In this document: positions 52,470-52,514 of the stretch, piece by piece | Numbering within the stretch: position 1 is the stretch's first letter | How the letters are laid out: each line of letters starts with the position of its first letter | Origin: Octopus vulgaris | Lineage: Eukaryota | DNA length: 64,000 nucleotides | Direction of reading: 5' to 3' | Assembly (NCBI GenBank): GCA_951406725.2 | Contig: OX597839.1 | Span: 38,130,001 to 38,194,000 of the forward strand | The notes under the pieces: generated by a model | The model's input: only the letters and a program-made list of their open reading frames with translations | Database searches by the model: none | Told to the model about the DNA's origin: nothing | Position numbers and translations under genes: made by a program

Positions 52470-52514
52470 TTACTTTACCGGTTTCACTTTTTAGAAAAAG
52501 ATTGTCAAAAGTAA
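52470..52514 (-). ncRNA. Type-I hammerhead motif with U3-A8 covariant core
   Basis: Minus strand: uuacuu UUGACAA U CUUUU-UCUA-AAAAG U GAAA CCGG UA aaguaa. Confidence 0.62.

Follow-up and report, generated by a model that had tools for sequence, protein, structure and literature searches.

The analyzed window, a 64,000-nucleotide stretch of the Octopus vulgaris genome (contig OX597839.1), contains a gene for a nitric oxide synthase that carries a PDZ domain at its N-terminus (Table 1). This gene extends over more than 50 kb, and its introns are rich in microsatellites. The last detected exon ends at position 50380 and is followed by a GTAAGT donor; no exon 3' of this position was found among the ORFs of at least 45 aa. 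A reductase half is expected in nitric oxide synthases. A scan of 144 of the 319 ORFs (35174-63619) revealed no such half, and thus the U3-A8 hammerhead motif described below likely sits in an intron of this gene. An ORF fragment at 14016-14459 (-), for which no Pfam match was found at E 0.01, resembles a Tc1/mariner transposase.

Table 1. Features of the analyzed window (positions are those of the window)
Feature	Position	Strand	Basis or remark
Nitric oxide synthase gene, PDZ-bearing	75-50380	+	Pfam
PDZ domain ORF	75-1388	+	Pfam
NO_synthase pieces	4818-5219, 25385-25762, 35517-35843, 47943-48113, 49877-50434	+	Pfam
Second hammerhead motif, G3-C8 core	26615-26665	+	Descriptor scan; G3 = 26622
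Third hammerhead motif, C3-G8 core, ACCGGU palindrome, long stem II region	36155-36227	-	Descriptor scan
(TA)n tract at the 3' end of the U3-A8 element	52388-52430		
Host of the U3-A8 motif, high-copy dispersed repeat, ~435 bp	52431-52868	-	Ends inferred from flanking (TA)n; read placement skipped both ends as repeats
3' tail, from the U3-A8 motif to (TA)n, 39 nt	52431-52469	-	
Minimal type I hammerhead motif, U3-A8 core	52470-52514	-	Sequence reading and descriptor scan
Palindromic stem III ACCGGU	52477-52482	-	
Stem II, U·U mismatch followed by 5 bp	52486-52501	-	
Core positions 3-9	52502-52508	-	U3 = 52508, A8 = 52503
(TA)n tract at the 5' end of the U3-A8 element	52869-52900		

The U3-A8 motif is read on the minus strand, from 52514 to 52470. 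Its stem I contains 6 bp (UUACUU/AAGUAA) and is followed by the core U3 U4 G5 A6 C7 A8 A9 and a U. Stem II contains 5 bp (CUUUU/AAAAG), with the loop UCUA and a U on either side. The second box comprises G12 A13 A14 A15.1, CCGG, and U16.1 A17, after which the 3' strand of stem I begins. Each part of the anatomy proposed in the first-pass annotation (6-bp stem I, UUGACAA core, short stem II, GAAA CCGG UA) was found here, and the distance of ~40 nt to the (TA)n tract given there proved to be 39 nt. The type I core (U4 G5 A6, A9, G12 A13 A14, and A15.1-U16.1) is complete, and positions 3 and 8 form a Watson-Crick pair. The cleavage site carries A17, not G17, conforming to NUH, and cleavage is predicted 3' of A17 (52476). 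The palindromic ACCGGU of stem III marks the motif as a dimer-type minimal type I hammerhead. Stem II is indeed short, consisting of five weak pairs, but its opening had been overlooked: U52501 is either a bulge, in which case a C·U closes the stem, or one half of a U·U mismatch. This arrangement, with the U·U family-wide, takes the place of the G10.1-C11.1 pair, which is usual in Penelope-like minimal hammerheads although the published descriptor does not require it.

Hammerheads were searched for in the window with a strict descriptor (palindromic stem III insert of at least 4 nt, stem I of at least 6 bp, stem II of at least 3 bp, Watson-Crick 3-8 pair) and with a loose one (stem I of at least 4 bp), the thresholds of both being chosen post hoc, with the motifs already seen. 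With any base allowed at positions 3 and 8, the strict scan found three motifs, with G3-C8, C3-G8, and U3-A8 cores. The strict Watson-Crick class was found in none of 500 block-wise dinucleotide shuffles (none of 200 in an earlier version of the scan), and its non-Watson-Crick equivalent was found 0 times in the window vs. 0.012 times per shuffle. The loose descriptor matched four Watson-Crick and two non-Watson-Crick sequences, vs. 1.05 and 3.29 expected. Thus, of the concern that similar hits would be frequent in shuffled AT-rich DNA, only the part relating to loose matches, which are common by chance, was borne out. Loose matches at 16498, 23637, and 30868 were rejected as being within chance expectation. 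The folding energy of the U3-A8 motif alone is ordinary (z -0.17). No hammerhead was present among the 150 of 251 Rfam matches listed for the whole window, and the 438-bp U3-A8 element matched no hammerhead model, only two weak unrelated models at E up to 10. Searches with exact patterns gave no match to the U3-A8 family in either metagenome or viral contigs, and none to the G3-C8 motif in metagenome contigs.

The G3-C8 motif is well formed, with a 7-bp stem I, a bulged G, the G10.1-C11.1 pair, an AAUAUU palindrome, and U17; its weak stem III palindrome reaches only -0.2 kcal/mol. Inverted arms (26530-26599 and 26685-26753) flank this motif, and the element holding it spans 26470-26761 (+) and is bordered by the two copies of a 13-nt direct repeat spaced 279 nt apart. 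The C3-G8 element (35900-36447, -) is located between microsatellites and contains two direct copies of a 54-nt sequence, 422 nt apart, together with a 72-nt inverted copy; it looks like a more-than-unit insertion of a Penelope-type element or a retrozyme. Penelope-like elements are known to form inverted and partial-tandem insertions (PMC8557442), which the layouts of both elements resemble. The best blastn matches between the three host elements are 13-18 nt long at E 0.01-0.02, and one of 35 nt at E 0.23 covers the core. Judged by these matches, the three hosts are unrelated repeats with only short words and the core in common. The earlier statement that three Watson-Crick versions of the 3-8 pair occur within one gene therefore holds for their presence in the window, but they belong to separate repeats and not to one system. 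A cross-family dimer of the U3-A8 and C3-G8 motifs, which have ACCGGU and the strand in common, was also considered but rejected because the motifs, 16 kb apart, lack complementarity between their stem I strands.

The U3-A8 motif is located near the 3' end of its host element, downstream of degenerate internal subrepeats of ~91 nt. No open frame of note was found in this element. Part of it was present in 20 of the 24 public runs listed. At 80% likeness, the element matched 1053, 1333, 614, and 831 contigs in four runs with four organism labels, and it is thus a high-copy dispersed repeat. The first-pass annotation had proposed checking other genomic copies, with a single-copy sequence as the adverse outcome; these counts reveal a multicopy motif. 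Summed contig depth, which does not equal copy number, is highest over the motif and drops toward the 5' end of the element. This drop is compatible with 5' truncation and could also be caused by divergence. Joints in other copies of the element comprise skips of 85-91 or 205 nt and a go-back of 224 nt, all upstream of the motif, so that the number of subrepeats in this region differs between copies. The go-back, at 52540-52763, was found in contigs of three of the four runs and excludes the hammerhead; no tandem joint bearing the hammerhead was present among the nine joints listed, all in short contigs. Self-blast detected no second copy of the element in the window, and no terminal direct repeat was found at the locus. 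Foldback (inverted-repeat) insertions are located at 3134-3460, 51916-52296, and 62615-62856, the second of them just across the (TA)n tract from the U3-A8 element; none contains a strict hammerhead match.

Variation among copies was surveyed in the 89-bp stretch 52444-52532, which matched 444, 600, 18, and 41 contigs in the four runs. Nine substitution rows reached 2% in at least one run, none of them at U3, at A8, or anywhere in 52494-52514, in a table that undercounts because changes near contig ends are missed. One such omitted change, in stem I at 52471, is visible in the consensus of loose ends and would give U·G. In run X2, four changes exceed 2%. Two of these replace A17, by U (23% of depth) or by C (32%), with no row for G listed, in agreement with the NUH rule. 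The third, at 52489 (68%), converts a stem II U-A pair to U·G, and the fourth, at 52493 (56%), falls in the stem II loop; the last two define a common subfamily. Additionally, a one-base insertion was found in the A-run of stem II (14%). All four X2 changes are compatible with the fold, vs. 28% expected per change from the element's own change spectrum (P = 0.006 for four independent events or 0.02 for three; post hoc). The other five rows are minor, each from a single run; four of them hit the palindrome, A14, or A15.1, and one preserves stem I pairing. Core or palindrome changes in some copies were found at 52479, 52480, 52482, and 52483 (2-11% in single runs). Relative to the element, the motif shows no significant deficit of changes (4 vs. 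6.0 expected, P 0.27), nor is the absence of G17 significant by itself (P 0.14).

Since no variant row at U3 or A8 reaches 2%, U3-A8 is likely the standing state of the repeat family and not a change specific to the copy in the window. The claim that chance decay would not readily give a compensated 3-8 pair gains from this invariance, as well as from the three strict motifs against none in the shuffles. Rather than having covaried at the locus, the 3-8 pair likely arrived already compensated with each insertion, as a fixed trait of the mobile family concerned. If Watson-Crick geometry at the 3-8 pair were needed more than specific bases, families could change to U-A or G-C by drift and go on to spread with the new pair.

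All pairings of the three helices are possible in the U3-A8 motif, but other folds are predicted to be more stable than the hammerhead, both for the monomer and for the dimer. For the monomer, the hammerhead fold has an energy of +4.4 kcal/mol vs. -4.7 kcal/mol for the predicted minimum. Two copies are predicted to form an intermolecular 6-bp duplex through ACCGGU (-8.3 kcal/mol, pair probability 0.92-1.0). Because a stem III of one pair is unstable in the monomer, activity would need such a dimer. The predicted energy of the double hammerhead is -11.5 kcal/mol vs. -18.7 kcal/mol for a competing hairpin, which would tie up U3, U4, G12, and A13; the intermolecular stem I pairs have a probability of only 0.03-0.07 in the dimer. 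Since the hairpin is predicted to outcompete the double hammerhead, cleavage, if any, would likely be slow or protein-assisted. A transcript of the parent element that carries two copies may thus form a double hammerhead through the palindrome and undergo cleavage 3' of position 17, a reaction that would probably be slow and assisted by the element's protein, as in the anole element. The lone antisense copy described here, with no partner of the same family in the window, is likely inert.

Natural U3-A8 covariation and a natural U10.1-U11.1 mismatch, both compatible with cleavage, were reported previously (PMC3088659, Perreault et al., 2011). Additionally, ~1,300 minimal hammerheads with U3-A8 were tied to the Cercyon Penelope-like elements of Schistosoma mansoni, and low activity was reported for minimal hammerhead dimers (PMC4209133, Cervera and de la Pena, 2014). 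Thus, the U3-A8 version cannot stand as a novelty. The motif described here adds one abundant family to the variant described in 2011 and 2014 and is mostly an ordinary find. Similar to the Cercyon hammerheads, it has type I topology, a palindromic stem III, a U3-A8 core, mostly dispersed single copies, and predicted action as a dimer (PMC4209133). Unlike the schistosome hammerheads, it has a stem II of 5 bp instead of 7-8 bp, opened by a U·U instead of a bulge and G10.1-C11.1, and no flanking ORF was found for it, whereas the Cercyon hammerheads are tied to Penelope-like elements (PMC4209133). The U3-A8 pair and the U·U at the base of stem II, both known from natural variants, are combined here; the relevant section of PMC3088659 does not state that both occur in one molecule, and it names no natural G3-C8.

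In the Anolis Poseidon element PAc, the natural hammerhead core is C3-G8, the C3G/G8C double mutant partly restores cleavage, and activity needs the element protein (PMC11167929). The slow or protein-assisted cleavage predicted for the U3-A8 motif matches both this dependence and the low activity of minimal hammerhead dimers (PMC4209133). G3-C8 is thus a laboratory mutant in PAc (PMC11167929), whereas at 26615-26665 it is genomic. Apart from this engineered rescue, no natural G3-C8 was found in the literature searched, and no dedicated hammerhead study of octopus or other cephalopods was present among the literature matches listed, paper supplements and Lunse et al. (2017) being beyond the scope of both searches. 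The G3-C8 motif is therefore a more interesting lead than the U3-A8 motif.

The host of the U3-A8 motif has (TA)n on both sides, a hammerhead near its 3' end, and a 39-nt tail, which fits the layout of Penelope-like elements and is suggestive, not diagnostic. Microsatellite targets have been described for these elements (PMC8557442), as have tails of 30-40 bp (PMC8557442; PMC11167929), and the tail found here is, by analogy, likely of the Penelope type. The combination of a Penelope-type hammerhead, a tail, and AT-rich targets is also known from PAc (PMC11167929). Judged solely by this architecture, the repeat likely belongs to a Penelope element; no Pfam match to a reverse transcriptase or GIY-YIG domain was found in the 144 of 319 ORFs scanned (35174-63619), and the usual G10.1-C11.1 pair is absent. 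We consider the best explanation, with a probability of roughly 0.7, to be a minimal type I hammerhead motif with a U3-A8 core whose carrier, a very abundant non-coding repeat, likely represents the 3' terminal-repeat end of a Penelope-like element or a non-autonomous derivative of one and was inserted into (TA)n in antisense orientation in what is likely a nitric oxide synthase intron.

A free non-LTR retrozyme family, in which short tandem monomers are made into circular RNA by the hammerhead, would account for several of the same features, the copy in the window then being a solo monomer. Metazoan non-LTR retrozymes are likewise short, non-coding repeats that bear type I hammerheads, some of which act mainly as dimers (PMC7229834; bioRxiv 10.64898/2026.07.22.740005). 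The AT-rich element of ~435 bp compares with ~220-400 nt in animal retrozymes (PMC7229834), a derivation of retrozymes from Penelope repeats has been proposed (bioRxiv 10.64898/2026.07.22.740005), and the stretch bearing the motif occurs in contigs of two runs guessed to be RNA (X10 and X16; 18 and 41 contigs). However, retrozymes are defined by tandem monomers and circular RNAs (PMC7229834), whereas the element is present at the locus as a single copy lacking a terminal direct repeat. None of the nine listed joints returns across the hammerhead, which the 224-nt go-back also leaves out, although short contigs make this weak evidence, and depth is uneven along the element. On balance, a retrozyme origin appears rather unlikely. 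Still less likely is that the family spread with an inactive hammerhead-shaped sequence, a dead relic whose apparent constraint comes from a few young master copies. The predicted sequestration of U3, U4, G12, and A13 by the competing hairpin, the small number of independent events behind the conservation statistics, and the unimpaired in vitro insertion of PAc hammerhead mutants (PMC11167929) would all suit a relic, but the two additional states of position 17, the pairing-preserving change in stem II, and the loose-end change in stem I, which would be U·G, all respect the fold.

The location of all three motifs inside the span of one gene might also suggest that they are kept for processing or regulation of nitric oxide synthase RNA, or that the match is a chance product of AT-rich DNA. 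Only the G3-C8 motif is in sense orientation relative to the gene. The U3-A8 and C3-G8 motifs are antisense, and the former is thus absent from the pre-mRNA and cannot cut it. Moreover, the three hosts are unrelated repeats, that of the U3-A8 motif is high-copy, and chance is excluded by the shuffles, which leaves both of these explanations highly improbable. A broader proposal extends the Penelope-type reading to all three motifs: separate mobile families of this lineage would each have fixed a different Watson-Crick 3-8 pair, including a natural G3-C8 and a U3-A8 with the family-wide U·U, and all would be active through a dimer chaperoned by the element protein. This proposal is tentative, and we regard it as possible but doubtful. 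If true, the genome would amount to a natural saturation test of the 3-8 core pair, with much of its ribozyme content escaping standard CUGAnGA searches. Families with non-canonical 3-8 pairs are missed by Rfam and by standard descriptors, as illustrated by the lack of an Rfam hammerhead match here. If the neighboring G3-C8 motif represents an active natural family, the three motifs would test which core features Penelope-type elements need.

Two further hammerhead-like sequences were observed in the window. One repeat, present in two copies that are 96% alike (17774-17887 and 62377-62490, both +), combines a short hairpin with a box resembling hammerhead positions 3-9 but has no intact second box. 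A degenerate C3-G8 motif at 8664-8726 (+), whose stem I has 6 bp and whose stem III is nearly palindromic, is possibly a decayed fourth hammerhead.
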